Shown piece by piece: positions 6,822-59,911 of a stretch of DNA of 64,000 bases. Within the stretch, counting starts at the first letter, position 1; every line of letters starts with the position of its first letter. The stretch covers positions 165,234 through 229,233 of the forward strand of contig JBAZSC010000002.1 in the NCBI GenBank assembly GCA_041662665.1, read 5' to 3'. The notes under the pieces were generated by a model. It worked only from the letters and a program-made list of their open reading frames with translations. It searched no databases and was not told the origin of the DNA. A program made the translations under genes and the position numbers. The stretch is from Patescibacteria group bacterium (GTDB lineage Bacteria > Patescibacteriota > JABMPQ01 > JAQVVF01).

Positions 6822-6870
6822 ATCTGTGTCTCTGTGCTTTATCTGTAAAGTATCTGTATAAAATCTGTGG
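6822..6870. repeat. ATCTGTG tandem array
   Basis: The sequence is atctgtgtctctgtgctttatctgtaaagtatctgtataaaatctgtgg. Confidence 0.7.
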
Positions 6871-6871
6871 C

Positions 6872-8725
6872 CTAGCCTAATATTTCAAATCTCTCTCCAC
6901 CAATAGAAATTTTTTCTGCTCTCAAAACAAAATCTTCCAAAATTTCATGCACTAACTTATCACATTTCTCTTTTATCTCTTGATATTCTTCATCAGATTT
7001 ATTAATGCCAACTTCCATTCCACAAGCTGCATAAAATTTTATTTTGGGTTCAGTTCCAGATGGTCTAACAACTACTCTGATTGTCTTTTCTTTATTTAAA
7101 TAAAATATTAATGCATTATCTGGAAAACCAATATATTTTCCAACAACTTTATTAGTTTTTGGATCAATAAATTTTTTTTCTAATTGATCTAAAACAGTAA
7201 ACACTTCTAATCCAGAAACTTTAGTTGGCAATTTCGCTCTAAATTTATCCATTATTTTTTTCATTTTATCCATTCCATCCATACCCTTGTAAAAAACAGC
7301 TTGCAACAATTCGCGATAATAACCATATTTTTTCTTTATAATTTCTAATTGTTGATACAAAGTCTTCCCTTCTTTTTTTAACAAACCAGCATATTCACAA
7401 ATTAATAATGCTGCAATTGCACCATCTTTATCTCTCGCATAATCTCCATACAAATATCCATGGCTTTCTTCAGCCCCAAATAAAAATTTATTGCCTTTTA
7501 ATCTTGTATCAATTGCATTGCCAATATATTTAAAACCAACTGGCAAATCTGTTATAACTTTACAACCATTATCTTCGGCAATTTTTGTCAGCAAGTCAGT
7601 AGTTACAACAGTTTTAATCATCATTGTTTTTTTCAAATCTGTTTTTTTACTCAACATTCTTGTTATATAATCCAAAAGCAAAACTCCAATTTGATTGCCA
7701 TTCAAAAATATATATTTTTCTTTTTTTATTGTTTCTGGACTAACAACGCCAATTCTATCAGCATCAGGATCAGCAGCAACCAACACATCAACCTTATTTT
7801 TTTTAGCCTGTTTTGTCCCAAGATCTAAAGAAATTGGAACTTCAGGATTTGGAATTTGTTTTGCAACACTTTTAAAATCTGGATCAAAAGGCATTTGGCT
7901 TTTTACAGTTTCAACTTTTTTGAAACCAACATTTTTCAAAACTGGCAAAAAAGAAGTACTCGCACAACCATTCAAAGGCGTAAATAAAATATGAACGTCT
8001 CGATAATTACCTAATGACAATTTACTTACAGTATCAACAAAAGCTTGATCAATATCTTTACCTAAAATTTTAATCTTTCCAGATTCTTTTGCTTTATTAA
8101 AATCAATTGTTTTTATTTTTTTAACAGCCATGACTTTATTAATAATATTTTTGTCATGAGGAGGAACAATTTGACCGCCATTATCAAAATATACTTTAAT
8201 TCCATTATCAGAAGGAGGATTATGGCTTGCACTAATCATTGCTCCACCGACTGCTTTCATTTTCCTAATTGTAAAAGATATCTGCGGAGTTGATCTAACA
8301 CCCTCATAAAAATATACTTTAAAATTATTTCCAGCAAAAACTGAAGCTGCTGTCTTTGCAAACAATTCAGAATTATGACGAACATCATAAGTCACTACAA
8401 TTCCTTTTTTTAACGCTTTATTCCCAAAAAATTTAATTAGATAATCAGCAAAACCTTGTGCAGATTCAGAAATTGTTCGAACATTAATTCTATTTGATCC
8501 AACTCCCATCATTCCCCTTCTTCCTCCAGTTCCAAAAGGAATAACCTGAAAAAAAGCGTTATTCAAATCATCAACTTTTTCATTATTAATCATCTCAATA
8601 ATTTCATCCCAAAATTTTTCACATTCATCACTATTCAACCAAATTTTTATATTTTTAACAGCCGAATCCACCAAACCTTTTTTCTTTAAACTAAGGAGTT
8701 TAGCATTTATTTCATTTATTTTCAT
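6872..8725 (-). CDS. Phosphoglucomutase/phosphomannomutase (alpha-D-phosphohexomutase family)
   Basis: The active-site serine loop ISASHNPPSDNGIKV is present, and the 617-aa length is compatible with PgcA-type enzymes. Confidence 0.85.
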   Translation of the reverse strand: MKINEINAKLLSLKKKGLVDSAVKNIKIWLNSDECEKFWDEIIEMINNEKVDDLNNAFFQVIPFGTGGRRGMMGVGSNRINVRTISESAQGFADYLIKFFGNKALKKGIVVTYDVRHNSELFAKTAASVFAGNNFKVYFYEGVRSTPQISFTIRKMKAVGGAMISASHNPPSDNGIKVYFDNGGQIVPPHDKNIINKVMAVKKIKTIDFNKAKESGKIKILGKDIDQAFVDTVSKLSLGNYRDVHILFTPLNGCASTSFLPVLKNVGFKKVETVKSQMPFDPDFKSVAKQIPNPEVPISLDLGTKQAKKNKVDVLVAADPDADRIGVVSPETIKKEKYIFLNGNQIGVLLLDYITRMLSKKTDLKKTMMIKTVVTTDLLTKIAEDNGCKVITDLPVGFKYIGNAIDTRLKGNKFLFGAEESHGYLYGDYARDKDGAIAALLICEYAGLLKKEGKTLYQQLEIIKKKYGYYRELLQAVFYKGMDGMDKMKKIMDKFRAKLPTKVSGLEVFTVLDQLEKKFIDPKTNKVVGKYIGFPDNALIFYLNKEKTIRVVVRPSGTEPKIKFYAACGMEVGINKSDEEYQEIKEKCDKLVHEILEDFVLRAEKISIGGERFEILG

Positions 8726-8784
8726 ATTTATTTTTATTACTTTTTATAATAAAAAATGCCGAAGTTTCCTTCGACATTATATTG

Positions 8785-9000
8785 TTATCTTACAAAAGTA
8801 AGCAATCCCAATACCCTTGCTCTTTTAATTGCCTTAGCAACCATTCTTTGGTGTCTTGCGCAATTTCCAGTTCTTCTTGTTGAAGCAATCTTAGAATAAG
8901 GAGTCAAAAATCTTTTTAAAAAATTAATGTCTCGATAATTGATTGTTTCAATTTTTTCCGCGCATAGCATACACGGTTTTCTAAAAATAGTCTCCGCCAT
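8785..9000 (-). CDS. rpsR: 30S ribosomal protein S18
   Basis: The motifs RKPCMLCAEK..INYRDINFLKRFLT..KI..RRTGNCARHQR..AKAIKRAR fit S18. It is the last gene of the rpsF-ssb-rpsR operon. Confidence 0.85.
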   Translation of the reverse strand: MAETIFRKPCMLCAEKIETINYRDINFLKRFLTPYSKIASTRRTGNCARHQRMVAKAIKRARVLGLLTFVR

Positions 9001-9022
9001 AAAATATTATGAATTAAATAAT

Positions 9023-9634
9023 TTAAAATGGAATATCTTCAACTTTAATTTCTTCATCTTTATTAACTTCTGTTGCAACTGGACTTGGCATTGCTTGTGG
9101 CATTACATTTTCAGAAGGCTGTGCTTGCGCAACAGAATTAGCTGGCTCTTCTAATGATATTGATGGTAGATTTTCAGATACAGGTTTTGAAACTGCTCCA
9201 AAGCTTTCTGATTGATTAACTGGTCTTGCAAAAGACTGAGTTTGTGCTTGAGTTTGAACAGGATTTTGATTTGCAAAATTTCCTGAATTAACTGGCTGAC
9301 TTGCACCTCTTGAATCTAGCATAATCATATTTTCTGCAACTATTTCTGTTCTATATCTTTTAACACCATCTTGTCCTACCCAATCGCGAGTTTGAATTCT
9401 GCCTTCAAGATAAACCTTTTTGCCTTTTGATAAATATTGGCTACAAATATCAGCTAATTTTCTCCAAGTAACAATATTGTGATATTCAACTTTTTCTTGT
9501 CTTTGACCTGATGCATCTTTCCACATCAAATTAGTTGCTACACTGAAACTGCAAACATTAGATCCCGAAGGAATAGTTCTTGTTTCTGGATCACGAGTCA
9601 ATCTTCCGATAATCATTGCTTTGTTCAAATCCAT
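9023..9634 (-). CDS. ssb: Single-stranded DNA-binding protein
   Basis: The N-terminus MIIGRLTRDPETR is an OB-fold SSB signature, and the C-terminal acidic tail ends in DIPF. Confidence 0.9.
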   Translation of the reverse strand: MDLNKAMIIGRLTRDPETRTIPSGSNVCSFSVATNLMWKDASGQRQEKVEYHNIVTWRKLADICSQYLSKGKKVYLEGRIQTRDWVGQDGVKRYRTEIVAENMIMLDSRGASQPVNSGNFANQNPVQTQAQTQSFARPVNQSESFGAVSKPVSENLPSISLEEPANSVAQAQPSENVMPQAMPSPVATEVNKDEEIKVEDIPF

Positions 9635-9820
9635 AGTTTTCTAGAGCTCTACCCCTTATCCGCCAAAATCCCGAAAATTTCGGGAATCAAACGGAGTTTC
9701 CCAAATGCTTAAGCTATTTGTAAGCTATGGGCAAGGGCGAACTCGTATTTATTTATATAAAATTTTTGTTTAAAAAATTTTTTTTACCTATTTTTAATTT
9801 CATCAAAAATTTTTATTGAC

Positions 9821-9880
9821 TTCTGCGTTTTTCGCGTCAGCTTCCGCATATTCCGCGTCAGCTTCTGCGTAGGTCTGCGG
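9821..9880. repeat. CGCGTCAGCTTC(C/T)GC tandem repeat just downstream of rpsF
   Basis: The sequence is ttctgcgtttttcgcgtcagcttccgcatattccgcgtcagcttctgcgtaggtctgcgg. Confidence 0.55.
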
Positions 9881-9883
9881 TTA

Positions 9884-10543
9884 TTAGTCAATTATGTCTT
9901 CTTCTAAAATTTTATCTAATTTTTTATCCAAATCAATTTCTTTTGATTCTTTCTTTTTCAAAGCTGGTTTTTCTTCCTTGTCCGCCGAAGCTTTAGCGAA
10001 GGCGGATTCTTCCTCTTTAACGTCAACAGGTTTTTCTTCCTTTTCTTTTTCTTCACCTTCAATCTTTTCTTCCTTGTCCGCCGGTTTGTCCACTGAAACT
10101 TTAGTGGAGGTGGAAGCTTTAGCGAAGGCGGATTTCTTTTCAACTTTTTCAGTTTTTTCTTCTTTCACTTCTTCTTTTGTTTCACCTTCACCTTCAACTT
10201 TTTCCTTATGTTCCTTGACTGCCGAAGCTTCAGCGGAGGCAGTAGCTTCTAATTTAACGTCTTTTTCTTGCTTTGTTACTAATATTCTGACGACATCCAT
10301 TTCATCAGCAACTTGATATCTAATCTTTTTAATTTTAGATGGATCAGCTTCAATCTTTGCAATAAAATAATATCCTTGGCTAAAATGTTTAATTTCATAA
10401 GCCAAATCTTTCATTCCCAAAAAATTTGATTCCAAAATTTTTGCATCAAACTTTGCTAAAATCTTTTCTAATTCTTGAGCCTTTTTTTCTGCTTGTTCAT
10501 CAGTCATTTTAGGAGACAAGAACATTGATAATTCGTACTTCAT
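9884..10543 (-). CDS. rpsF: 30S ribosomal protein S6 with a long Lys/Glu-rich C-terminal extension
   Basis: The N-terminal roughly 95 aa (MKYELSMFLSP...LAYEIKH..GYY...VVRILV) fit S6. The extension of about 120 aa contains three in-frame copies of the palindromic element encoding SAFAKAS-type peptides. The plus-strand ORFs 9894..10316 and 9958..10143 are shadows of this gene. Confidence 0.8.
   Translation of the reverse strand: MKYELSMFLSPKMTDEQAEKKAQELEKILAKFDAKILESNFLGMKDLAYEIKHFSQGYYFIAKIEADPSKIKKIRYQVADEMDVVRILVTKQEKDVKLEATASAEASAVKEHKEKVEGEGETKEEVKEEKTEKVEKKSAFAKASTSTKVSVDKPADKEEKIEGEEKEKEEKPVDVKEEESAFAKASADKEEKPALKKKESKEIDLDKKLDKILEEDIID
9981..10006. repeat. Palindromic element copy (TCCGCC-GAAGCTTTAGCGAAG-GCGGA) in frame in rpsF
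   Basis: Exact 26-mer also at 38264-38289; variants at 10077-10132, 10218-10241, 19057-19082 and 40655-40684. Confidence 0.7.
10077..10132. repeat. Nested palindromic element: outer TCCGCC...GCGGA interrupted by inner TCCACTGAAACTTTAGTGGA
   Basis: The sequence is tccgccggtttgTCCACTgaaactttAGTGGAggtggaagctttagcgaaggcgga. Confidence 0.6.
10218..10241. repeat. Palindromic element variant CTGCC-GAAGCTTCAGCGGAG-GCAG
   Basis: It encodes TASAEASAV in the rpsF tail. Confidence 0.55.
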
Positions 10544-10671
10544 AATGTAGTAAATTAAATCCTCCTTCGTCCTGCTGGACTACGGCGGATGCTAAAATTT
10601 GTATTTCTTATCTTATCACAAAAATCTGAATAATGCAAGGAAATTCGGTATTTTTTATTTTAGCGATAATT

Positions 10672-10944
10672 TTATTCCTTAAAAATTTTTCGTAGTTCAT
10701 CTTTTGCCTTATTTAAAACATTTTTCTGCTGTCCAGATAAGTTCCTTCCTGCTCGATTAATATAAAAATTCAACATCGACATCGCTGACTGAAATTCAGT
10801 TCCTTTTCTACGATTGCTTTTTTCCGCCGATTTTTTTAAAGATTCAGCAATTTTTTTAGGATCATTAAATGTAAAAACACCATCTTCTAAATCCAAAGCA
10901 TTACTTTCTTTTGTTACTTTGCCGGACCAATATTTTTTTGTCAT
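10672..10944 (-). CDS. DUF3175-family protein
   Basis: The product contains SAMSMLNFYINRAG and DLEDGVFTFNDPKKIAESLKKSAEKS, which are motifs characteristic of DUF3175. Confidence 0.6.
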   Translation of the reverse strand: MTKKYWSGKVTKESNALDLEDGVFTFNDPKKIAESLKKSAEKSNRRKGTEFQSAMSMLNFYINRAGRNLSGQQKNVLNKAKDELRKIFKE

Positions 10945-11183
10945 ACTTTTTTATTTTACATCCATCACTAGTTTTATTAATTTTATCAATTTTACTTATT
11001 TTACTCATACCATTCCATCCTGTTTTTACAAAAAGTTTGCCAGAACCTCTAAAAAATCTTTAAAAAAATTTAGACAATATTATTATATCAAATTGTTTTT
11101 AATTAACAAAAATATAATCTTTAAAATTAGTTCTTCTCTTGCAAAAAACAAGGAAATAAGCTAAAATTCAGTTTGAATCTAAA

Positions 11184-17982: not shown

Positions 17983-19023
17983 TTAACCTCCATAAAAACA
18001 TAAAGGATCAGGACCTTGCAACATATTGCCATTATAAGCAGAAAATCTTTGTGCTAAACATCCTCCTTTACATGAATCCAACAAAACGCATTTTCTACAT
18101 TTACCTTTTAATCTTTTATAACCATAACTTTGGAATCTTCTAAATATATCAACCATTGGATGTTTTAGCCAAAAATATTCCAAATTATTTTCCAAAATAT
18201 TACCAAATGCCGGATATTTCATTGCCGAACAATATGTCACATCGCCATTTGCTCTAATCAAAATCTTTTCTTGACCAATATTACAACTTCTAATTGGAAA
18301 ACTTTCATCATAACTATATCGTCTATCAATGTTATGTCCTAATATCAAATCAAAACGTTGAGGTATCAAATAAGAGAAAAATCTTTGCGCGACTCTAAAT
18401 TGTTCTTGATTCAAAACTAATTCTGGATGATTTGCGCAACTGCCTTGAACAACCAATCTCAATAAGTGCCAGTTCTTTACTCCCAGATCTCTCAACAAAT
18501 CATACATCAAACCCAATTCAAGATAATTCACTGCCATTACAGTAGTATGCACTTCAACTTTTAATCCTCTTGCAACAGCTAAGGCAATACTTGCCATCAA
18601 CAAATCAAATGATCCTTCTAGTCCTGTCACTTTTTCATGCGTTTCTTTCATCCCATGCAAACTAAAAACTATTCTGTCATCTTTATGAGAATAACGTCTC
18701 CAAAAATCAAAGAAAGCTTCTTTCAAAGAAAACATTTTTCCTTTTTCATTTTTATAAATAGCGCTCGTCTGCAATCTTACAGAAAAACCAAATCGCCATG
18801 CATAAAGCATTAAATCAATACAATCTTTTCGCATCAAAAGCTCGCCTCCGCTAATCGTAAAAATACTTGCCCCAAGCCATTTTGCTTGTCTCAAAATATC
18901 CATTATTTCTGCCTGCGATAATTCTCTTTCAAAAGGCAAACCAGCATTTGAAGAACAATGAAGGCAACTTAAAGCACATTGATTTGTGATCTCAATTGAA
19001 ATTTCTTTCAATAGCCTTGGCAT
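17983..19023 (-). CDS. Radical SAM enzyme with C-terminal SPASM domain
   Basis: The CALSCLHCSS (Cx3Cx2C) motif is present. A C-terminal Cys cluster (CNIGQ...YCSAMKY...CRKCVLLDSCKGGCLA) is typical of SPASM auxiliary Fe-S domains. A strong RBS (AAAGGAGGGAGA) precedes the gene. Confidence 0.8.
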   Translation of the reverse strand: MPRLLKEISIEITNQCALSCLHCSSNAGLPFERELSQAEIMDILRQAKWLGASIFTISGGELLMRKDCIDLMLYAWRFGFSVRLQTSAIYKNEKGKMFSLKEAFFDFWRRYSHKDDRIVFSLHGMKETHEKVTGLEGSFDLLMASIALAVARGLKVEVHTTVMAVNYLELGLMYDLLRDLGVKNWHLLRLVVQGSCANHPELVLNQEQFRVAQRFFSYLIPQRFDLILGHNIDRRYSYDESFPIRSCNIGQEKILIRANGDVTYCSAMKYPAFGNILENNLEYFWLKHPMVDIFRRFQSYGYKRLKGKCRKCVLLDSCKGGCLAQRFSAYNGNMLQGPDPLCFYGG

Positions 19024-19056
19024 TTCTCTTCTCCCTCCTTTGTCCCATCAACTTTG

Positions 19057-19082
19057 TCCACCGAAGCTTTAGCGCAGGTGGA
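19057..19082. repeat. Palindromic element variant TCCACC-GAAGCTTTAGCGCAG-GTGGA (intergenic, in the 5' region of the rSAM gene)
   Basis: Its arms and loop are homologous to those of the rpsF copies. Confidence 0.6.
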
Positions 19083-19162: not shown

Positions 19163-19192
19163 ATAGAGGCACAAAATCTTGTGCCCCTAGAT
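19163..19192 (-). terminator. Intrinsic terminator hairpin, identical copy of the one at 20881..20910
   Basis: On the minus strand, a GGGGCACAA-GATT-TTGTGCC hairpin is followed by CTCTATTTTTT. Confidence 0.6.
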
Positions 19193-19237: not shown

Positions 19238-20794
19238 TCATTTCACCCCAATTGCAAAATACTGCGTCTTCGTTGGATATTTAGTGAAATACTTTACAAT
19301 GAATTTTCTGTTTTTCTTTATTACTTTAGCATCAGTAAATACTGTAGATATATTCTGCCAAGAACCACCTTTTTTCTTGTATTTCAAATAAAGATTTGAT
19401 GCTGTTGCTGATTTATTTTTCTTTAAAAATTTCTTTAATGCTTTCTTAGTATATTTGAATGTTACTTTAATTTTATATTTCTGTGATAACTTTTTTGCTT
19501 TGTATTTATATAGATTAGTCTTTAATTTCCAATTGCTTAAGAATGTCTTATTTGGATATTTGCTTAATTTATTCCATTGCATCCAATAAGCGCTGTTCTT
19601 TGTTAATTTTGTTGGAAGCTTGGTGAAATTGATAACTAGATTTTGGCCTGAAATTGTTTGTTGATTTAGAGCTGGCATCAACGTAACTTTGTCACCATTA
19701 ATCAAATTGTTCTCCTCTAAAAGCCTATCGTATTCTTTTTGCTCTTCAGCGCTTAAAGTGTATTTCCAGACCTTTCCGACATAACTTTCATCAGAATTAC
19801 TATCACCTCCAGCATAAATTGAACCATCTGAGACTTGAATCAAAGAATAAACATCAGACCCAGCCATTATTCCAGTAAAATCTGACCAAGAACCATTCGA
19901 ATATTTAGAAACTTTAGCATAAACACCATTACCACCTGCATAAATCGAACCATCTAAAGCCTGAGATAGAGAATAAACATGGGTCATATCCAGCGTACCA
20001 GTGATATCTGTCCAAGAATTATTTGAATATCTATAGACTTTAGCATAATTAGTAGAATAAAAACCACCTGAATAGCCACCAGCATAAATTGAACCATCTA
20101 TCGCCTGAAACAAAGATCGAACGTTAGACATATTTAATGTTCCAGTAACATCTGACCAAGAACCATTTGAATATTTAAAAACTTTACCATAATCATCACT
20201 ACCATCATAATAATGTCCTCCAGCATAAATTGAACTATCTGAAGCTTGAATCAAAGAAGTTACAACAGACATATTTGAAATTTCAGAGATACTGATCCAA
20301 GAACCATTTGAATATTTAAAAATTCTATCATCATAATTAAAACCATTATAGACATATCCACCAGCATAAATCGAACCATCTGAGGCTTGAAGTAAAGTAG
20401 TAACAAAAGACATATCCGATAATCCAGAAACATCAGTCCAAGAACCATTCGAATATTTATAGACTTTAGCAAGATAATCGCTAGCTAAAACATATCCGCC
20501 AACATAAATCGAACCGTCTGAGGCTTGAAGTAGAGAAGCTACATTAGACATATTTAATGTTCCAGTAATATCTGACCAAGAACCATTTGAATATTTAGAA
20601 ACTCTACCATAAAAATGGCTACCATCATCATAATTCCCACCGGCATAAATCGAACCATCTGAAGCATAAACCAAAGAATAAACTGTAGATATACTCAATG
20701 TCCCAGTAATATCTCCCCATTCAGCACTAGCAATTCCGCCTAATCCAAACAATAACCCCACGCAAAACAAACTTGTTAATAAAAACTTTCTCAT
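19238..20794 (-). CDS. Secreted beta-propeller repeat protein with the shared Lys-rich C-terminal module
   Basis: A signal peptide is followed by about eight repeats of roughly 45 aa (YSNGSW.D.TG...SLLQASDGSIYAGG). The C-terminal segment of about 150 aa is homologous to the C-termini of four other secreted proteins in this window. Confidence 0.7.
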   Translation of the reverse strand: MRKFLLTSLFCVGLLFGLGGIASAEWGDITGTLSISTVYSLVYASDGSIYAGGNYDDGSHFYGRVSKYSNGSWSDITGTLNMSNVASLLQASDGSIYVGGYVLASDYLAKVYKYSNGSWTDVSGLSDMSFVTTLLQASDGSIYAGGYVYNGFNYDDRIFKYSNGSWISISEISNMSVVTSLIQASDSSIYAGGHYYDGSDDYGKVFKYSNGSWSDVTGTLNMSNVRSLFQAIDGSIYAGGYSGGFYSTNYAKVYRYSNNSWTDITGTLDMTHVYSLSQALDGSIYAGGNGVYAKVSKYSNGSWSDFTGIMAGSDVYSLIQVSDGSIYAGGDSNSDESYVGKVWKYTLSAEEQKEYDRLLEENNLINGDKVTLMPALNQQTISGQNLVINFTKLPTKLTKNSAYWMQWNKLSKYPNKTFLSNWKLKTNLYKYKAKKLSQKYKIKVTFKYTKKALKKFLKKNKSATASNLYLKYKKKGGSWQNISTVFTDAKVIKKNRKFIVKYFTKYPTKTQYFAIGVK

Positions 20795-20880: not shown

Positions 20881-20910
20881 AATAGAGGCACAAAATCTTG
20901 TGCCCCTAAT
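20881..20910 (-). terminator. Intrinsic terminator downstream of rpoC
   Basis: This is the same 30-nt hairpin plus T-run as at 19163..19192. Confidence 0.6.
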
Positions 20911-20945: not shown

Positions 20946-23900
20946 TTAGACCTTCTTCACGTATCCAGTACCAGCTGGAATTAACTTGCCAAGAATTACA
21001 TTTTCTTTCAAACCTTTCAATTCATCAACCTTGCCAGTGATTGAAGCATCAATCAATACTCTTGCAGTTTCTTGGAAAGAAGCAGCAGATAGGAAACTAT
21101 CAGTTGATAATGAAGATTTTGTAATACCTAATAATAATTCATCAGCCTCTGGTAATTCTTTTCCTTCTTTTCTTAATTTATCGCGAACAGCCAAGAATTT
21201 TACTCTATTCATTACATCGCCAGCAATCAAATCACTCTTGCCAGTTTTTCTAACTCTTACCCAATTCAACATTTGTCTGATAATCAATTCAACATGTTTA
21301 TCATCTACATCCTGACCTTGGCTTGAATAAATATATTGTACTTCTTTCAAAATATATTTTTGAATTGCTTCTCTTCCACAAGACTTGAATAGATTTTGCA
21401 AATCTAATGCGCCTTCTGATAATTGTTGGCCCTTGCTTACCAAATCCTTATTCTTTACCCACAAGACAGCATTGCTAGGCAAAATATATTCTTTTTCAAC
21501 ATCGCCTTCTTTGACAATAATTAAATTCTGTCCATCAATTTTCACAAAACCAGAAGCTTTTGCTTTAATTTCTTTGCCTTTTTCTGTTTTGATCAAAACA
21601 TCGCCTTTATTAACATCTGTTGCATCTTTAACAACAAGTTTGTCATTTGTTCCAAATTGATATAAATCTTTGCTGACATTTGAAGCAACGATTCTCAAAA
21701 TTTTTCTGTCTTTTTCTTCTTCAATTGAAGCAATACCATCTAATTCTGCAAAAATCGCTGGTTTTTTAATTCCTCGAGCTTCAAATAATTCTTCAACTCT
21801 AGGCAAACCTTGAGTAATATCGCCTTCGGAAGCTACACCACCAGTATGAAAAGTTCTCATTGTCAACTGTGTTCCTGGCTCACCAATTGATTGAGCAGCA
21901 ATAATACCAACTGCTTGTCCAATTGCTACTTTTTCATTTCTACCTAAATCCCAACCATAACATTTTTGACAAATTCCTCTTTCCATTTTACAAGTTGTTA
22001 CTGAGAAAATTCTAACACCATCCAAATCCAAACTATCAATCAATTTTCCATAAATTTTTGTAACAATTTCTCCTTTTTTAATAACAACCTTACCAGTTTT
22101 ATCTTTAATGTCTTGAGCCAAAGTTCTACCTAAAATTCTATCACCAATAGTTGTATTCATTTCTGTACTATCTTTTTTGGTTATTTCAAGACCTTTTGTA
22201 TCACTGCATTCGGGAGCTTGGACAATGATATCTTGAGAAACATCAATCAATCTTCTTGTTAAATAACCAGCATTAGCAGTTCTCAAAGCTGTATCAGTCA
22301 AACCTTTACGAGCACCGTGAGTAGAAATGAAATATTCCAATACGCCTAAGCCTTCTTTAAAACTATTCTTAACTGGCAACTCAATAGTCTTTCCAGATGG
22401 AGCAGCCATCAAGCCTCTCATACCCATCATCTGAACAATTTGTGGCCATGAACCTCTCGCACCTGATTCAACCATTGCATAAACTGGACCAAATTCTTCA
22501 ACTGTATTTCTAGTTACTTCTGTAATCTTCTCTTTTACATTTGCCCAAGTTTCAATAACTTTGACATAACGTTCATGATCAGTTAGAAGACCAGCTTTGT
22601 ATTGTTGTCTGATTTCTTCAATTTTCTTTGTTGCATCGGTCATCATTCCTGCTTTTTCTTTTGGCAATTTCAAATCATCCATACCCCAAGAAAGTCCAGC
22701 CTTAGTCAAATATTCAAAACCAATTTCTTTAATTGCATCAACTAATAATACAGTTTCATCACCGCCATGCTTATGCAAACATTCGCCAATTAATTCTCTT
22801 AATACTTTTTTATCAAAAACATTATTTCTAAAACCAAAATCTGCTGGCAAAACTCGATTAAAGATAATTCTACCAACGCAAGTTTCTACTATTTCTTCAT
22901 TTATTCTAACTTTGATTTTTGCTCTAATATCAACTAAATCATTTTCATAAGCTAAGATTGCTTCTTCAGCATCTGAAAAGATTTTACCTTCTCCCTTCAT
23001 TCCAACTCGCATATTAGAAATATAATAACAACCCAAAACAATATCTTGAGAAGGAGTAGTAATTGGAACACCAGTCGCAGGCTTTAATAAATTTTTTGTT
23101 GAAGCCATAATTTCTTTTGCTTCTTTTTGCGCTAAAACTGTTAACGGTACATGGACAGCCATCTGATCACCATCAAAATCAGCATTAAAAGCAGAACATA
23201 CCATTGGATGAATCTGCAATGCTTTGCCTTCAATCAAAATTGGCTTGAAAGCTTGAATACCTAGTCTATGCAAAGTCGGAGCACGATTTAACAACACATA
23301 TTTATCAGCAATAATTTCTTCCAATGCATCCCAAACTTCTGATCTGCCTTCTTCAATTAATTTTCCTGCTGATCTAACATTATGAGCATATTCATTCTTA
23401 ATCAAACTATTAATAACAAATGGTTTAAATAATTCCAAAGCCATTGTTTTTGGAATACCACACTCGCCTAATTTTAAGTGAGGTCCAATAACAATTACTG
23501 AACGACCAGAATAATCAACGCGCTTACCTAACAAATTTTGTCTGAAACGTCCTTGCTTGCCTTTCAACATATCAGCCAAAGATTTTAATAATCTTTTCTG
23601 TCCAGTTGAAGCAGCAGTTACTTTTCCAGATCTTGCTGAATTATCCAATAATGCATCAACAGCTTCTTGCAACATTCTTTTTTCATTTCTACAAATAACT
23701 TCTGGCGCATTTAATTCAATCAATCTTTTTAAACGATTATTGCGATTTATAACTCTTCTATACAAATCATTCAAATCAGAAGCTGCATATCTGCCACCAT
23801 CCAATTGAACCATTGGACGTAGATCAGGAGGAATAACAGGAAGAACAGTTAAAATTGTATATTCTGGTCTGATTCCAACTTTAATTAAATTTTTAACTAA

Positions 23901-24770
23901 TTTTAATCTTCTTTTAATTTTCTTTTTAATTTGGGCTGGTGCGTTGATTACTTCTTTTTCTAAATCAACTGCCATTTTTTCCAAATTAATTTCTGCTAAT
24001 ACTTTTCTAACGGCTTCAGCGCCAATCGATGCTTTAAAAACATGTCCATATTTCATGGACAAATTTCTGTATTTTAATTCAGAAATAACACTTAATTTTT
24101 TAATGTCTTTAACTTCTTCTTTTTCAAAATTAAAAACTTTATTCAACTTTTGTTGTTCTTTTTCTTTATCGGAATACAAAACTTTTAATCTTTTTTCAGC
24201 ATCTGCTGAATTTCCTTTTTCAGCTTTTTGTTTAACTCTTAGTTGTTTTAATTCGGAAGCTAAATTTTTGTACTTATCATCAATTCCTCTTTTCTTAGAT
24301 TTAAATTCGTCTTCTAATTCATTCAAAGTTTCTGTCTTTGCTTTTTCATCAACTGAAGTTATTAAATAGCTGGCAAAATATACAACTTTTTCCAAACTTT
24401 TTGCTGACAAATCTAAAATCAATCCAACTTTTGATGGAACACCACGTAAAAACCAGATATGAGAAACAGGAGCTGCTAATTCAATATGTCCCATTCTTTC
24501 ACGTCTGACAATTGATCTCGTAACTTCAACACCGCATTTGTCGCAGATTATTCCTTTGTATCTAATTCTTTTATATTTTCCGCAATAACATTCCCAATCT
24601 TTTGTTGGACCAAAAATTCTTTCCGAAAAAAGTCCATCTTTTTCCGGACGTTGGGTACGATAATTGATTGTCTCTGGTTTTTTTACTTCTCCATAAGACC
24701 AATCTAAAATTTCGTCTGGAGAAGCCAGTTTCAATCTTATCGCATTAAAATCAGTTGTAATATTTGCCAT
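20946..24770 (-). CDS. rpoC: DNA-directed RNA polymerase subunit beta'
   Basis: The 1274-aa product has the zinc-binding motif CYCGKYKRIRYKGIICDKCGVEV, the catalytic motif NADFDGDQM and a trigger-loop region. Confidence 0.95.
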   Translation of the reverse strand: MANITTDFNAIRLKLASPDEILDWSYGEVKKPETINYRTQRPEKDGLFSERIFGPTKDWECYCGKYKRIRYKGIICDKCGVEVTRSIVRRERMGHIELAAPVSHIWFLRGVPSKVGLILDLSAKSLEKVVYFASYLITSVDEKAKTETLNELEDEFKSKKRGIDDKYKNLASELKQLRVKQKAEKGNSADAEKRLKVLYSDKEKEQQKLNKVFNFEKEEVKDIKKLSVISELKYRNLSMKYGHVFKASIGAEAVRKVLAEINLEKMAVDLEKEVINAPAQIKKKIKRRLKLVKNLIKVGIRPEYTILTVLPVIPPDLRPMVQLDGGRYAASDLNDLYRRVINRNNRLKRLIELNAPEVICRNEKRMLQEAVDALLDNSARSGKVTAASTGQKRLLKSLADMLKGKQGRFRQNLLGKRVDYSGRSVIVIGPHLKLGECGIPKTMALELFKPFVINSLIKNEYAHNVRSAGKLIEEGRSEVWDALEEIIADKYVLLNRAPTLHRLGIQAFKPILIEGKALQIHPMVCSAFNADFDGDQMAVHVPLTVLAQKEAKEIMASTKNLLKPATGVPITTPSQDIVLGCYYISNMRVGMKGEGKIFSDAEEAILAYENDLVDIRAKIKVRINEEIVETCVGRIIFNRVLPADFGFRNNVFDKKVLRELIGECLHKHGGDETVLLVDAIKEIGFEYLTKAGLSWGMDDLKLPKEKAGMMTDATKKIEEIRQQYKAGLLTDHERYVKVIETWANVKEKITEVTRNTVEEFGPVYAMVESGARGSWPQIVQMMGMRGLMAAPSGKTIELPVKNSFKEGLGVLEYFISTHGARKGLTDTALRTANAGYLTRRLIDVSQDIIVQAPECSDTKGLEITKKDSTEMNTTIGDRILGRTLAQDIKDKTGKVVIKKGEIVTKIYGKLIDSLDLDGVRIFSVTTCKMERGICQKCYGWDLGRNEKVAIGQAVGIIAAQSIGEPGTQLTMRTFHTGGVASEGDITQGLPRVEELFEARGIKKPAIFAELDGIASIEEEKDRKILRIVASNVSKDLYQFGTNDKLVVKDATDVNKGDVLIKTEKGKEIKAKASGFVKIDGQNLIIVKEGDVEKEYILPSNAVLWVKNKDLVSKGQQLSEGALDLQNLFKSCGREAIQKYILKEVQYIYSSQGQDVDDKHVELIIRQMLNWVRVRKTGKSDLIAGDVMNRVKFLAVRDKLRKEGKELPEADELLLGITKSSLSTDSFLSAASFQETARVLIDASITGKVDELKGLKENVILGKLIPAGTGYVKKV

Positions 24771-24814: not shown

Positions 24815-25174
24815 CTAAAAATCAGTCCCATTTACATCATTTTCATTATAATCAATTGTTATTTCTTCGCCAAAATAAATATTTCTAACAGCAATAGTAT
24901 CTTTAAATTGTCCTAGACTTTTTGTATTTGGATTTTCTGAATGATTTATAAACCTTGCATTATCAGTATCCAAATAAACATAATCTTCACCATTATCAAC
25001 AGCGTATGTGTCAAAAAATTCTTCTGCATTTTTCGGTATATCTTTTTTGTTTACTTTTATATCAATGACAGAATTAAAAACCCAAACAGATTGACCTTTT
25101 TTAATTTCTTGATCAGCAATCAAACCAATCCCTTTCCCATTTATTTCTTTTAACCTTGTCTTAACTACTAACAT
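24815..25174 (-). CDS. Minimal SET-domain protein (putative protein-lysine methyltransferase)
   Basis: The 119-aa product has GKGIGL (GxG), RFINHSENPN (NHSxxPN) and GEEITIDY (GEELxxDY) in canonical order. It lies between rpoB and rpoC on the same strand. Confidence 0.75.
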   Translation of the reverse strand: MLVVKTRLKEINGKGIGLIADQEIKKGQSVWVFNSVIDIKVNKKDIPKNAEEFFDTYAVDNGEDYVYLDTDNARFINHSENPNTKSLGQFKDTIAVRNIYFGEEITIDYNENDVNGTDF

Positions 25175-25330: not shown

Positions 25331-28300
25331 CTATTTACGTTCGTACTTTTTTTCTTCAGTTTCAAGAATATTTCCATTTTTATCCAAAATTTCAACATTC
25401 AAAGCTAAGCTTTTTAATTCTTTAACTAAAACGCTGAATGATTCTGGAACATTTGGCTGTCTGATTGGTTCACCCTTAATAATCGCTTCATAAGTTTTTG
25501 AACGTCCAATAACATCATCTGATTTTATTGTTAACAATTCCTGTAACACATGAGAAGCGCCATAAGCCTCAATTGCCCAAACTTCCATTTCACCAAATCT
25601 TTGTCCACCAAATTGTGCTTTACCGCCTAATGGCTGTTGAGTAACTAATGAGTACGGCCCGATTGATCTTTGATGGATCTTATCTTCAACTAAGTGATAA
25701 AGTTTCAAGATATACATCACACCAACTGTTGTTTTTTCCGTAAATGCATTACCTGTTCTACCATCATAAAGTTGAACTTTGCCATTTTCTGGCCAGTTTG
25801 CTCTTTTTAATTCAGATTTAATTGTTTCTTCTTTTACACCATCCAAAACTGGAGTTGCAACTTTATAGCCTAATAATTTTGCCGCCATGCCTAAGTGAAC
25901 TTCCAAAATCTGACCTTGATTCATACGAGAAGGCACGCCTAATGGATTCAAAATAATATCAACTGTTCTTCCATCTGGCAAATATGGCATATCTTCCTGT
26001 GGAACAATCTTTGAGATAACACCTTTATTACCATGACGTCCAGCTAATTTATCGCCAACTTGAATTTTTCGAAGTTGTGCGACAGAAACTTGAATCGTCT
26101 TGATAACGCCAGTTGGCAATTTATCGCCTTTTTCTCTAGAAAATATTTTAACATCAACAACCTTACCATGTTCGCCATGTTGCAAATATAATGAAGTGTC
26201 TTTTACATCTCTAGCTTTTTCACCAAAGATCGCTCTTAATAATCGCTCTTCTGCTGTTAATTCAGTTTCACCTTTTGGTGTAATTTTACCTACCAAAATA
26301 TCACCTGAAGTAACTTGAGCTCCGACTCTAACAATTCCTTCTTCATCCAAATCTTTTAGTTTTTCTTCACCAACATTTGGAATATCGCGAGTAACTAATT
26401 CTGAACCTAATTTTGTATCACGAACATCAATCGAAAAATCCTCAATATGAATTGAGCTATAAACATCTTCGCGAACTAGTCTATCAGAAATCAACATCGC
26501 GTCTTCAAAATTTCCACCTTGCCATGCCATGAATGCAACTACAACATTTTTTCCTAAAGCTAATTCGCCTTTATCAGTTGAAGATCCATCAGCAATAATC
26601 TGACCCTTTTTTACTTTCTCACCAACTGAAACGATTGGTCTTTGATCAATACAAGTTGAAGTATTTGATCTTAAGAAATTTAATAATTTATATTCTCTAA
26701 TATTTTTATTAGCTTCCAATACTTTTATTCTTTTTCCAGATACTTCAATGATCTCTCCATCTTTTTTACAAACAATAACTACACCTGAATCTTTAGCAGC
26801 TCTCTCTTCACAACCAGTACCTACAATTGGTGAATCAGGATTAATACATGGCACAGCCTGACGTTGCATGTTTGAACCCATCAAAGCACGATTAGCATCA
26901 TCATGTTCCAAAAATGGAATCAAAGCTGTAGTAATAGATACAATTTGTTTTGGAGAAACATCCATATATTCGATTCTGCCTGTTGCTTCCATTGATGGCT
27001 CGCCTGCAACTCTAACTTCTGCTCTTTTATCAACAAAATAGCCTTTTTCATCAATTAAAATTGTTGCTGGAGCTGTCACATGTTTTTCTTCCTCAATTGC
27101 ATCTAGATATTCAATTTCATCAGTAACTCTTGATCTAATTTGAACTACTTTCAAACCAGCATTTTTAATTTTATTGATATCTTTTTTATCAAGAACTTTG
27201 TCAGCTGGAATAATCACTCTTCTTTTTTCATCTAGGATTCCAGATTTATAAGAAATCTCGCCGATTGCCTTTTCTGCTCTTTCAATTGGAATTTCTCTTA
27301 AAATCTTTCTATAAGGAGTTTCAATAAAACCATATTCATTAATTCTTGCATATGAAGAAAGATGGCCTACCAAACCAATGTTTGGACCTTCAGGAGTCGA
27401 AATAGGACAAATTCTGCCATAGTGAGTTCTGTGTACATCACGTACATCAAAACCAGCTCTTTCACGAGACAAACCTCCAGGACCCATTGCTGATAATCTT
27501 CTCTTATGTTCTAACTCGGATAATGGATTTGTTTGATCCATAAATTGAGAAAGTTGAGAAGACATGAAAAATTCTCGAATTGAAGAAATAACTGGTCTAG
27601 CATTAATCAATTGAGCTGGAGTAGAAGTATTAATATCCAAAGTACTCATTCTATCTCTAATGATTCTTTCCATTCTCATCAAACCAACTCTCATTTTATT
27701 TTGGACCAATTCACCAATCGCTCTAACTCTTCTATTTCCTAAATGATCAATATCATCAGGATTGCCTTGATTAATATTTAATTTAATTAATTCTTTTATA
27801 ACATTAACAAGATCTTCTTTTCTTAAAACTCTATTTTGCTTGTTAATAATAATTTTTTCACCTAATCTTTTGTTCATTTTGAAACGTCCAACTTTGCCAA
27901 AATCATATCTTTCAAAATTAAAAAACATTGCTTCAATCAATGATCTTGCATTATCCGCAGTTGCTAAATCTCCAGGTCTAATTCTTTTATATACTTCAAT
28001 AAAACCTTCAGCTTGATTTTTTGCAATATCTTTTTCTAATGTATTTTTGATAAATTTTCGATCAGGCAAAGTATCAACATCCTTGAATTGAGCCAAAATT
28101 TCAGAATCTGTGGAAAACCCAAAAGCCCTTAACAATGACGTTACAGGTACTTTTCTTTTGCGATCGATTTTTGCATAAATAACACTTTTTGAGTCAGTTT
28201 CAATTTCTATCCAAGCGCCTCTGTTTGGAATAATTTTTGCGCCAAATAATTTTTCGCCTTTTGTTAATTCAGCAGTAAAAAATACGCCAGGAGATCTAAT

Positions 28301-28696
28301 CAATTGAGAAACAACTACTCTTTCAACACCATTGATAATAAATGTGCCTCGATCAGTCATCAATGGAAATTCGCCTAAATATACTTCTTGTTCTTTTATT
28401 TCACCAGTTTGTTTATTAACTAATTGAACTTTGCAACGAACTGAAGCTTCATAAGTTGCATTTCTTGATTTTGCTGCAACTTCATCAACTTTTGGTTCAT
28501 CAATTACATAATCAACAAAACTTAATTCTAGATTTTTTTCAGTAAAATCTTTGATTGGAGAAATTTCATCAAACAATTCTCTCAAACCTTCTTTAAAAAA
28601 CCAATCATAAGAATCAGTTTGAACTCTGATTAAATCAGGAAGTTCAATAACATCATGCAATTTAGTAAAAAATTTTCTTTTTTGCTTTTGAGGCAT
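25331..28696 (-). CDS. rpoB: DNA-directed RNA polymerase subunit beta
   Basis: Conserved beta-subunit regions are present throughout. The ORF-track start at 28741 uses TTG and adds 15 hydrophobic residues. The ATG at 28696 ([10 protein letters not shown]...) is the more plausible start. Confidence 0.95.
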
Positions 28697-28744
28697 ACTA
28701 TAAAAAATTAATATATAATAACAAATACTAATCATTTGCAATTA

Positions 28745-38214: not shown

Positions 38215-38472
38215 TTATTTTTTCCAGAATTCCCACCATTTCTTTTGTATTTTTTCTTCTTTATCCGCCGAAGCTTTAGCGAAGGCGGACTCTCTCATCT
38301 TTTCTGCAACGTCTTCTTGTTCGTCTGGCCTTAGATTAAATTTGCTTTCTTCGTTCATTTCATTATGTTGCTTATCAATTGTTTTCTCTTGCATCTTGTT
38401 TGCATAACCAGAATCACGCGCATCTTCTCTCTTCTTTTCAACACGATCAAATGGATTTTGTTGGTCTACCAT
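38215..38472 (-). CDS. Small charged hypothetical protein carrying an in-frame palindromic element (SAFAKASADKEEK)
   Basis: The 85-aa ORF contains the 26-nt element at 38264-38289. Its coding status is uncertain. Confidence 0.35.
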   Translation of the reverse strand: MVDQQNPFDRVEKKREDARDSGYANKMQEKTIDKQHNEMNEESKFNLRPDEQEDVAEKMRESAFAKASADKEEKIQKKWWEFWKK

Positions 38473-40332: not shown

Positions 40333-41307
40333 TTATTTTAGAGAATCCAAATAATATTTTAAAATTTTAGTCCAAATTTCTAATAATTTTTCTTTCTCTT
40401 CAAGAGGAATATCTGATCCGCCTATATCTGCCAAAATTGTCCCAACAGATCTTCCCAACATTCCTAAATCAAACCCTTTTTTATCAGTAAGTTCATTCTT
40501 AACAAAAATATTTTTCCAATCCAAACTTTCTTTCAATGCCAAATCATAATTTATAATCTTTCTTGCATCTTGAATTATTGACCAAACTATAAAAGGTCCT
40601 TCGGCAAATTCAGGTTGCCAACAACAATGAGCAAAATCAGTCAAATAATACTTGTCCGCCGAAGTCCCACAGGACGTAGGCGGATTTACCTTAAAAATTT
40701 CCTTTGGCTTAAAATGTCCATGTGTCCAGATAAATTTATATCCATTGCCATCTTTTTTCAAAACATCAATCGCTTTTTCACACAAATCATAACTCTCTTG
40801 TTTTAACCAACTTTTTTCTTTTGCCAATTTTTTCCATTTTGATATATTTCTCAACGCCCAATCGCCAACTGTCTTATCTTTAAAAATTTTTAATTCAGGA
40901 TTTTTGGGCCAGATCTTTTTATATTCGATAAAAACTTTAAAAAATTCTTCTCTGTTTTCAACTTTCGGCATGCCCTCAAAAATATGTTTGCTTGTATCAA
41001 TGTATTCTTCAATCAGCCAGCCGGAATGATCATCATACATTTTATAATTATATAATTTCGGAGCAGTTAAAATTTCACTTTTATTATTTTTTAAAAATTC
41101 TTTCAAATTCAAAGGTTCATACACTTCTCTTGGATCTTTCCACATTTTCAAAATCGCTTTTTTATTTTCAAAATTTCCTTTAAAAATAATATTTCTTGTT
41201 TTGCCTTTTCTATAATAGGTACTTGAATAAATTTCTTTTTCGGAAACAAAGCGAGCCTCTAAAATTATCCTTTTTATTTCCGCATCGCTTAAAAAATCAA
41301 ATTTCAT
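40333..41307 (-). CDS. Phosphotransferase (APH/choline-kinase-like kinase fold) with a palindromic element inserted near the catalytic loop
   Basis: The motifs HGHFKPKEIF and YYLTDFAH resemble the HGD.hp.N / DFE motifs. The element at 40655-40684 encodes NPPTSCGTSADK between them. Confidence 0.55.
   Translation of the reverse strand: MKFDFLSDAEIKRIILEARFVSEKEIYSSTYYRKGKTRNIIFKGNFENKKAILKMWKDPREVYEPLNLKEFLKNNKSEILTAPKLYNYKMYDDHSGWLIEEYIDTSKHIFEGMPKVENREEFFKVFIEYKKIWPKNPELKIFKDKTVGDWALRNISKWKKLAKEKSWLKQESYDLCEKAIDVLKKDGNGYKFIWTHGHFKPKEIFKVNPPTSCGTSADKYYLTDFAHCCWQPEFAEGPFIVWSIIQDARKIINYDLALKESLDWKNIFVKNELTDKKGFDLGMLGRSVGTILADIGGSDIPLEEKEKLLEIWTKILKYYLDSLK
40655..40684. repeat. Palindromic element variant TCCGCC-GAAGTCCCACAGGACGTAG-GCGGA in frame in the kinase-like gene
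   Basis: It has the same 6-bp arms and the GAAG...AG loop ends, but the loop core differs. Confidence 0.55.
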
Positions 41308-59762: not shown

Positions 59763-59830
59763 GATGTCGGATGTCGGAAGTCGGAAGTCGGAACGTTCCG
59801 AAGTTCTGACGCTCCGACGTTCCGACGCTC
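59763..59830. repeat. GC-rich GTCGGAA / CGTTC(C/T)GACG repeat with dyad symmetry; the same family is in frame in tsaB (32330-32372)
   Basis: The sequence is gtcggatgtcggaagtcggaagtcggaacgttccgaagttctgacgctccgacgttccgacgctcc. Confidence 0.65.
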
Positions 59831-59911
59831 CAAAACAAAAGACCACCGGCATCGGTGGCTAGTTTATTTCAAAATATAGAAACTAAACATCACACCGCTG
59901 CCTGTGGCTAA
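59826..59911 (-). promoter_or_regulatory. Conserved leader element copy 2: TTAGCCACAGGCAGCGGTGTG, spacer, hairpin CCACCGATGCCGGTGG and T-run
   Basis: See 55121..55214. This copy lies about 170 nt upstream of ORF 59437..59667. Confidence 0.35.

Follow-up and report, generated by a model that had tools for sequence, protein, structure and literature searches.

Insertion of 30-nt hairpin units, best classed among REP-like palindromic repeats, in the ribosomal protein S6 gene of a Patescibacteria group bacterium

Selfish DNA inside protein-coding genes is a classic feature of Rickettsia, where the Rickettsia palindromic elements (RPE) were reportedly described by Ogata et al. in 2000; RPE-1 measures ~100-150 bp and is restricted to that genus. 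Much smaller repeats, the small dispersed repeats (SDR) of the Nostocaceae, are said, from work by Elhai et al. in 2008, to be mobile, hairpin-capable sequences of ~21-27 nt that can nest, HIP1 being the insertion site of SDR5. Here we analyse a 64-kb stretch of contig JBAZSC010000002.1 from a Patescibacteria group bacterium (hereafter the window; 31.7% GC), in which a GC-rich palindromic unit of 30 nt and its relatives (58-62% GC) occur eight times, four of them inside rpsF, the gene for ribosomal protein S6. An original prediction, made from the letters of the window, had noticed the palindrome and likened it to RPE. The window proteins resemble those of metagenome-assembled genomes (MAGs) labelled 'Patescibacteria group bacterium', and the host is not a Rickettsia.

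Other systems of comparable size are documented. Di Nocera et al. (2013; PMC3733652) present repetitive extragenic palindromes (REPs) as mostly intergenic, with some copies in open reading frames (ORFs), where they add 10-30 residues to the translated protein; several REP families occur per genome, some insert into other palindromes, and the CGTC families come without a dedicated transposase. The same paper equates the short RPE-4 and RPE-6 with CGTC REPs, the short RPEs having a CGTC tag, a stem of 8-9 bp that begins with AT, a loop of 4-5 nt and a CCA tail. According to PMC5861425, SDRs are confined to one cyanobacterial family. In mitochondria, GC clusters and related hairpins have a constrained stem and a freer loop, they merge and nest, and no element-encoded enzyme is known for them (PMC4478555, PMC2800124).

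The 26-mer TCCGCCGAAGCTTTAGCGAAGGCGGA (plus-strand reading), predicted at 9981-10006, was recovered there as an exact match and has a second perfect match at 38264-38289, with 0 matches expected by chance in shuffled sequence. It is an imperfect palindrome that folds into a 6-bp outer stem, a 3x3 internal loop, a 2-bp inner stem and a tetraloop. On its 3' side follows a 4-nt tag, YARG, usually CAAG (bases 3' of the hairpin in 125 copies: C86/T37, A80, A72, G75). Because this tag is conserved and the 5' flank is not, the unit is taken as 30 nt, which matches the indels found in rpsF. A covariance model built from the element (R1) detected six copies in the window with E<2e-6, all on the minus strand. 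In total the window holds eight units, six of them within ORFs, the exceptions being one in the rpsF leader and one intergenic copy; five are packed in ~620 bp at rpsF (9976-10594), against three across the other 63 kb.

The rpsF gene (9884..10543, minus strand; 219 aa) was identified via PF01250 homologues; ssb (9023..9634) and rpsR (8785..9000) come after it on that strand. Its nearest S6 homologues, P0001, P0002 and P0003, the last from a 'Patescibacteria group bacterium' MAG, are 88%, 86% and 78% identical in alignment, and the others are more distant. All orthologues possess a Lys/Glu-rich C-terminal extension of variable length, and in the window this extension hosts four units, all on the minus strand and all in the rpsF frame, with readings as originally claimed. 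The canonical unit at 9977..10006 (hairpin 9981-10006, tag CAAG 9977-9980; 54.5 bits) encodes SAFAKASADK. The compound structure at 10077-10132, predicted to be a nested copy, is indeed one: an inner 30-nt unit, TCCACCTCCACTAAAGTTTCAGTGGACAAA (10085..10114; 47.1 bits; STSTKVSVDK), interrupts an older host copy whose 5' half, TCCGCCTTCGCTAAAGCT, lies at 10115..10132 and whose 3' half, CCGGCGGA, lies with its tag CAAG at 10073..10084. The whole translates as SAFAKA-STSTKVSVDK-PADK, and the 3' 20-mer of the element repeats at 10113-10132, the end of the compound structure. A diverged copy placed at 10218-10241 by the original prediction does exist, but its end is 10243 and its 3' arm is GGCAGT; the complete unit spans 10214..10243 (45.1 bits) and encodes TASAEASAVK. 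Since the conserved S6 C-terminal motif DLDKKLDKILEEDI(I/V)D sits downstream of all four units with the frame kept, the inserts are very probably translated. An assembly artefact is excluded, because other contigs encode the identical 219-aa S6 with all inserts (ENA ERZ27249449 and Logan SRR6484324; a third contig, of the 0.2-1 Mb class, is counted).

Alignment of rpsF with the orthologous DNA of five relatives (L001-L005; ~80-85% identical) shows that the units enter the chromosome as discrete DNA insertions. The 30-nt block (T)ACTGCCTCCGCTGAAGCTTCGGCAGTCA(A), which encodes TASAEASAVK, is a gap in every relative aligned, and the STSTKVSVDK unit is missing from all relatives, L001-L004 aligning there with a clean gap of 30 nt. 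At the position of the compound structure, L001, L002 and L003 have a single unit, TCCGCCTT(C/T)GCTAAAG(C/T)TCCGGCGGACAA(G/A), the uninterrupted version (TCCGCCTTCGCTAAAGCTCCGGCGGACAAG) of the host copy; the difference is exactly 30 nt, the inner unit, lying inside that single unit. L004 and L005 have no unit at this site, and in the alignment of S6 orthologues the older SAFAKA..PADK copy is common only to the window and its two closest relatives. The C-terminal SAFAKASADK unit is missing in L002-L005, and L001 has an unrelated-looking 30 nt of equal length in its place. Across the syntenic region 6838-11002, the only window-specific insertions of at least 30 nt are the TASAEASAVK and STSTKVSVDK blocks and a 35-nt block in the rpsF leader. 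We also considered that these segments are ancestral parts of the S6 tail that the relatives lost, as the varying tail length of the orthologues would allow. However, ten orthologues, outgroups included, are without TASAEASAVK and STSTKVSVDK, the gaps match the hairpin-unit boundaries exactly, and the same unit is found in unrelated genes and phyla, so that an ancestral origin is the least probable of the explanations weighed here.

The leader block, TAGCATCCGCCGTAGTCCAGCAGGACGAAGGAGGA (10560..10594, minus strand), lies 17 nt before the rpsF ATG and is a hairpin, TCCGCC-GTA-GTCC-AGCA-GGAC-GAA-GGAGGA, with a TCCGCC/GGAGGA outer stem. It is not present in L001-L004, and its RNA fold has a free energy of -14.1 kcal/mol (z -3.8). 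The hairpin supplies a window-specific GGAGGA at 17 nt from the ATG, probably too distant for a role as ribosome-binding site. In L001, L002 and L004 the rpsF leader is short and has no Shine-Dalgarno-like sequence, with a promoter-like TTGCAT-N17-TGTGATAAGAT upstream (window 10544-10660).

Outside the rpsF region, copies had been predicted in two other ORFs and at one intergenic site, and all three were found, on the minus strand. The intergenic unit (19053..19082; 52.2 bits), with TCCACC..GGTGGA as stem and CAAA as tag, lies upstream of a radical-SAM ORF (17983..19023); its hairpin, 19057-19082, has three mismatches to the 26-mer, among them a compensatory stem change. A canonical unit with the tag TAAA (38260..38289) is in frame in an 85-aa ORF (38215..38472) and again encodes SAFAKASADK. 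Here the situation is reversed, the orthologue in the syntenic relative L130 having an extra 30-nt unit nested in the copy that is intact in the window. The third is a long-loop relative, TCCGCC-TAC-GTCC-TGTG-GGAC-TTC-GGCGGA plus CAAG (40651..40684; 31 bits), whose hairpin (40655-40684) has the outer stem of the canonical unit and a longer loop. It is in frame in a 324-aa ORF (40333..41307) for an APH-like phosphotransferase and reads PPTSCGTSADK. The protein has FKVN-PPTSCGTSAD-KYYLTDFAH where its closest homologues have FKIN-NKYCLTDFAH, a net insertion of 27 nt or 9 residues relative to P0016/P0017, flanked by conserved motifs.

The element is not limited to this lineage. We scanned one genome per GTDB species (596 Gb) with the degenerate pattern TCCRCCTNYRCTAAAGYTYCRGYGGA (~43 bits), which left two R/Y stem positions free and for which ~0.1 chance matches are calculated under uniform composition. 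At least 120 loci were found, in at least 12 phylum-level groups by record title, which, together with the covariance-model copies in the window, bears out the expectation that the element would recur. The statements on hosts, context and orientation that follow refer to the matches listed. The locus GC ranges from 28 to 68%, and the exact 26-mer of the window is the majority variant. Hosts include Alphaproteobacteria (Bradyrhizobium isolates among them), Gammaproteobacteria, many Bacteroidota, Acidobacteriota, Planctomycetota, Verrucomicrobiota, Geomonas, Bdellovibrio (a complete genome), Nitrospira, Dehalococcoidaceae, Omnitrophota, TA06, FCPU426 and several Patescibacteria lineages. The R1 model found only the rpsF copy in relatives of the window and ~13 copies besides those selected for in 717 kb of cross-phylum loci (8-kb pieces), so the exact family is sparse elsewhere (~1 per 55 kb) and dense at rpsF. 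The unit had no BLAST match in any of the 5,426 complete E. coli genomes, and PLSDB plasmids and INPHARED phages gave partial, chance-level matches only. Of the 2.9 million viral contigs in IMG/VR only 2 carry the element, which makes phages no obvious vector.

At loci of up to 47% GC, 46 of the 67 copies (~69%) lie outside any ORF of at least 100 aa. Twelve copies at these lower-GC loci are in ORFs of at least 230 aa, where they read SAFAKASADK (7), LSAEALAKAD from the antisense strand (4) or RRSFSEGG (1), and both orientations are found inside ORFs. About ten copies adjoin stable-RNA genes, namely the tRNA-Ile/tRNA-Ala spacer typical of rRNA operons, tRNA-Ser, -Pro, -Gly/Leu and -Thr, and tmRNA. 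A single 'master' tRNA locus was rejected, as many different tRNAs are involved. Orientation relative to gene direction is 31 versus 30, and a coupling to transcription was likewise rejected on these counts. A weak preference for the G-rich strand is seen at the lower-GC loci (40 versus 21, p=0.015); in the window 7 of 7 copies are on the G-rich minus strand, and the plus-strand GC skew is uniformly negative there. Some copies sit within larger palindromes. In L121, L103, L098, L069 and L079 the copy is in the loop of a larger perfect palindrome, and in Bradyrhizobium (L038, L103, L118) the 26-mer occupies the loop of a CGTC-type REP (…GGATTGCT-[unit]-CAAGTCGCTGCGCTCGCAATGAC). Di Nocera et al. 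(PMC3733652) mention a self-complementary 'GCGG/CCGC-type loop' of up to 27 bp, reported only in Bradyrhizobium, which we infer to be the 26-mer element described here. Eight alphaproteobacterial loci (L006, L010, L049, L068, L075, L100, L109, L114) and the viral contig L127 carry inverted doublets of the element with a GC-richer partner, CCGKCGWAGCCTTGGCG…, an arrangement that is REPIN-like (REP doublet-like).

Insertion into a pre-existing copy was observed as eight independent events: window rpsF, L130, L020 (Geomonas), L030 (Planctomycetota), L040 (Xanthobacteraceae), L050 (an Alphaproteobacterium), L058 (Dehalococcoidaceae) and L067 (Bradyrhizobium). In all eight, exactly the hairpin and its 4-nt tag, 30 nt, lie between T18 and Y19 of the host copy (...AARGCT^YCGG...). 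Units hitting another copy thus land at one fixed position, after ...AARGCT and before YCGG. GCT is also the 5' junction of 15 of the 120 copies listed, against ~2 expected, and of 3 of the 5 window copies. No target-site duplication was seen at rpsF, L130 or the other nested junctions, where the ambiguity is at most 1-2 nt. In four of the eight events a canonical GCTAAAGCT-type copy lies inside a GC-adapted GCCAAGGCT-type copy, so the inner unit did not come from its neighbour.

The units stem from several co-existing sub-families. The nested and 10218 copies carry CCTCC, and the other two rpsF copies CCTTC; the 10218 copy in addition has two compensatory changes in its stem relative to the canonical form. 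The resulting ACTGCC..GGCAGT stem variant was found with the usual tags at 7 unrelated metagenomic loci, so the 10218 copy was inserted ready-made. Taken with the CCTCC/CCTTC difference, this means that rpsF was struck by units of at least three sub-families, a different one for each of its three intact copies. The original claim that nesting reflects repeated insertion is upheld by inner and outer copies of different sub-families and by a nesting position that recurs in seven other genomes. These data also bear on local duplication or slippage, by which the rpsF copies would derive from a tandem tail unit of ~100-140 nt plus an 18-nt internal duplication, followed by divergence. Longer direct repeats do exist in the tail at 96-141 nt spacing, as does an 18-nt offset between 10095 and 10113. 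However, the indels against orthologues are the exact 30-nt unit and not tail units, the copies belong to different sub-families (ACTGCC stems being present at unrelated loci), the nesting position is shared by seven unrelated genomes with differing inner and outer types, and an identical copy lies 28 kb away. Slippage, to which we give a very slim chance, is already largely refuted.

The canonical state of the inner copies raises another possibility, an RNA-templated or master-copy origin, in which a reverse transcriptase or a template-switching polymerase would produce the units as short cDNAs, or by templated repair, from a conserved master RNA or DNA. Templated copying from a master would keep new inserts canonical in every host, in agreement with the four nested cases, where the young inner copy is canonical and the older outer one has drifted to host GC, and with a canonical sequence that does not vary with host composition; for the GC42 clusters of yeast mitochondria, a spread mediated by RNA has been proposed (PMC4478555). 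Nevertheless, the window has no reverse transcriptase, no longer parent sequence is common to the loci, doublets aside, no candidate master was found beside a specific tRNA, and the co-existing stable stem sub-families would need several masters. We regard this origin as improbable.

Base-pairing is maintained in both stems. Covariation was significant by Fisher test for positions 4-23 (p=1.9e-9) and 10-17 (p=2.3e-5) and not for unpaired control pairs. In the R1 alignment of 113 copies, 97.6% of cells pair and five of the eight pairs show both-sided change; the observed values are reached in 0 of 500 shuffles, and slid controls lie at zero or close to it. The flanking bases -1/+27, taken as a further stem pair, showed no Watson-Crick covariation. 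The antisense strand folds more stably as RNA than the sense strand (-15.0 versus -11.7 kcal/mol) and has a symmetric purine internal loop, GAA/GAA or GUA/GAA. Such constraint may be read as the mark of a selected signal acting in RNA or DNA (a determinant of mRNA 3' ends or stability, an RNase- or protein-binding site, a non-canonical terminator), whose function would conserve the sequence across phyla, new copies arising by recombination or being kept as useful and genic copies being by-products. Near-identity over 28-68% GC with both stems covarying implies constraint, and the purine loop in the more stable fold and the frequent siting beside tRNA genes, the tRNA-Ile/tRNA-Ala spacer and tmRNA genes speak for a signal; PMC3733652 also argues that many REPs act as RNA elements. 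On the other hand, copies are present or absent at an essential gene, in the coding region and leader of rpsF, between relatives ~85% identical in DNA, so no copy is required at the rpsF sites. The orientation is random relative to transcription, with either orientation inside ORFs, and self-nesting at a fixed site wrecks the host hairpin, which is hard to rationalise functionally. No Rfam family was matched: Rfam 15 gave one tRNA and noise for the window at the gathering threshold and for 9600-10700 at a relaxed E-value. Altogether, a selected structural signal seems unlikely.

We consider it probable that the element is a non-autonomous, REP-like tagged-hairpin mini-repeat, mobilised in trans and tolerated in frame. 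The inserting enzyme would recognise the DNA as a folded single strand. With no target duplication, a specific insertion site and a tag on the unit, an HUH/Y1 nuclease of RAYT (REP-associated tyrosine transposase) or IS200/IS605 type would be the obvious candidate. A specific site, no duplication, a tag, hairpin dependence and a possible replication-strand bias are what is expected of HUH/Y1 single-strand transposition (IS200/IS605, RAYT). Selection would then purge most genic insertions, leaving in ORFs those copies whose site is tolerant and whose reading frame is bland and free of stops (sense SAFAKASADK, antisense LSAEALAKAD); in-frame tolerance is favoured because 30 nt make ten stop-free codons. 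The Lys/Glu-rich S6 extension, present in all orthologues yet variable in length, is presumably disordered and may be such a site for ten extra bland residues. An existing copy may itself be a preferred target, and with a tolerant tail this would explain how rpsF gathered four units, plus one in the leader. Highly transcribed genes may also expose single strands, which fits the tRNA, rRNA-spacer and tmRNA neighbourhoods.

Several observations weigh against mobilisation in trans by such an enzyme. Pfam annotation of 20 window ORFs returned housekeeping genes and no mobilising enzyme among the window proteins; all-versus-all clustering of 2048 ORFs from 120 loci gave generic families only, none recurring near copies; and inverted copies 2.5 kb apart (L062/L084) enclose only housekeeping genes by Pfam. 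The replication-strand bias is weak, 60 versus 49 overall at the loci listed, and not significant. Several stem sub-families in a CPR (Candidate Phyla Radiation) genome of the ~1-Mb class would need several cognate RAYT enzymes, which seems unlikely, and the 5-unit rpsF cluster, set against the 3 units in the other 63 kb, is explained qualitatively only. Neither a transposition intermediate nor an empty/filled polymorphism within one population was seen, and the translation of the inserts is inferred from the reading frame. Nor do species-specific REP/RAYT systems show a near-identity of 26-30 nt over at least 12 phylum-level groups. A more tentative reading is that of a pan-bacterial minimal mobile element distinct from species-specific REP/RAYT, which would insert site-specifically 3' of GCT, including in the loops of its own and other palindromes, and would stay near-invariant over at least 12 phyla and 28-68% GC via widespread trans-acting machinery that recognises or templates it, or via repeated acquisition from foreign DNA.

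The case extends selfish DNA in protein-coding genes to the CPR, and to a core ribosomal protein gene and its leader. It accounts in a simple way for some of the inserts that single lineages have in CPR proteins, and annotation pipelines could flag or mask SAFAKASADK and LSAEALAKAD as signature peptides. A hunt for the enzyme would have a precisely defined substrate in the fixed insertion point together with the exact 30-nt unit and the stem sub-families, the mechanism of very small repeats such as CGTC REPs, cyanobacterial SDRs and mitochondrial GC clusters being a long-standing question. Near-identity of a non-coding element of 26-30 nt in a dozen phyla is unusual and implies either very broad horizontal spread or shared constraint.

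Other repeats and hairpins were noticed near rpsF and in the relatives. Just 3' of the rpsF stop, a 73-nt GC-rich block of tandem ~21-nt, ACGCAGAAGCTGACGCGGAA-like units (9812-9884) is present in L001 in diverged form and missing in L002 and L004. It looks like another lineage-specific repeat insertion and is possibly a distant relation of the hairpin family, via a shared GAAGCT..GCG core. The rpsF-ssb spacer (~250 nt) contains the perfect hairpin TCCCGAAAATTTCGGGA (9669-9685) and other GC-rich segments without an Rfam match, and the 9640-9740 region may be a structured leader of ssb. L001 (~2125-2170; window ~8777) has, between rpsR and the phosphoglucomutase gene, a private 43-nt insertion with a different GC palindrome, CCTGCCTGCCGGCAGGCAGG, so other hairpin families also insert in this lineage. 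Lineage-specific hairpin indels are not all GC-rich, since a window-specific 41-nt insertion relative to L004 at 476-516 is AT-rich, with a perfect 12-bp terminator-like stem.

Elsewhere in the window, an 18-nt hairpin, GGCACA-AAATCT-TGTGCC, occurs identically at 19168-19185 and 20887-20904 and flanks a 518-aa propeller-repeat ORF (19238..20794). Between rpoC (20946-24770) and rpoB (25331-28735) lies a gene for a 119-aa SET-domain protein (24815-25174), position and domain both being unusual for a bacterium. A 612-aa GH18 (chitinase-like) protein with CHB_HEX_C and Fn3-associated domains (38491-40329) is encoded between the 85-aa ORF and the APH-like gene, and L130 has no gene at that position. 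A 1317-aa GDSL-lipase/CHB_HEX_C protein (55371-59324) is encoded at a GC content of 0.38, against 0.31 for the window, and this stretch is possibly acquired DNA. Upstream of it lie a long imperfect intergenic palindrome (59766-59834), with four GTCGGAA heptads followed by inverted TTCCGAC/CTCCGAC units, and a second hairpin, CCACCGGCATCGGTGG (59843-59858).

The likeness to RPE holds for behaviour, since in both cases palindromic repeats lie in frame in coding genes, essential ones included, of a small AT-rich genome and are apparently tolerated; it does not extend to host, size, CGTC tag or stem architecture, and in architecture the element is closer to tagged REPs. A 30-nt unit with a 6-bp TCCGCC stem, a 14-nt structured loop and a YARG tag stands apart from RPE. 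The original prediction had also suggested that such an element was undescribed for AT-rich small-genome lineages. A full-text literature search found no published description of the sequence, of the encoded peptides or of palindromic repeats in CPR/Patescibacteria, but the element is not peculiar to AT-rich lineages, occurring at up to 68% GC.

With tagged REPs (GTAG/CGTC), as characterised in the excerpts of Di Nocera et al. 2013 (PMC3733652), the element shares an imperfect GC-rich palindrome of 20-40 nt and a conserved unpaired terminal tetranucleotide. The tag here is, however, YARG (CAAG/TAAA/CAGG; CYTR on the other strand, e.g. CTTG) and not GTAG or CGTC, and precise self-nesting at one internal position is not described in those excerpts. 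REPs are species- or genus-specific, whereas this element is near-identical over at least 12 phylum-level groups. REPs are predominantly extragenic; of the present element, 46 of 67 lower-GC copies listed are intergenic, and in the window 6 of 8 units are in ORFs. REPs reach hundreds of copies per genome, and the densities seen here were 7 copies in the 64 kb of the window and ~1 extra copy per 55 kb in the 8-kb pieces from elsewhere. No RAYT or REPtron was found in the window, as a recurrent family near the 120 copies listed or between the inverted copies. In REPINs (PMC3116915) the replicative unit is an inverted REP doublet that forms a long hairpin; the window carries singlets, each indel being a lone 30-nt unit, and among the matches listed inverted doublets occur only at the alphaproteobacterial loci and L127. 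Yeast mitochondrial GC clusters (GC42; PMC4478555) and sponge or fungal mitochondrial hairpins (PMC2800124) are likewise GC-rich 30-45-nt hairpins in an AT-rich compact genome, comparable to GC-rich units with stem covariation in a window of 31.7% GC. They are organellar and mostly intergenic and have a putative AG target duplication (PMC4478555, PMC2800124), while the element described here is on a bacterial chromosome, shows no AG duplication at its junctions and is found in high-GC genomes too. Nostocaceae SDRs are similar in being very small hairpin-capable repeats with clean indels between orthologous regions, a specific short insertion site and nesting; no cross-phylum range is reported for them, and the sequences are presumably unrelated.

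Miniature inverted-repeat transposable elements, with terminal inverted repeats, a target-site duplication and a length of ~50-500 bp, differ from a 30-nt unit without an evident duplication. IS200/IS605 elements and the derived palindrome-associated transposable elements (PATEs) are hairpin-dependent, insert 3' of a short specific sequence without duplication and have an orientation coupled to the replication strand, features that are all compatible with the element. Those elements need two different subterminal hairpins, at the left and right ends, and TnpA; here the whole unit consists of a 26-nt hairpin and 4 nt, and a TnpA was found neither in the window nor as a recurrent family at the loci listed. 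Intragenic copies, insertion into palindromes and families without a transposase are already known for REPs from PMC3733652. What appears to be undescribed is a CPR host, insertion of the unit as a 30-nt singlet, a self-nesting site that is fixed, and near-identity across a dozen phyla, and the element is best classed among the REP-like small palindromic repeats, with a new tag.

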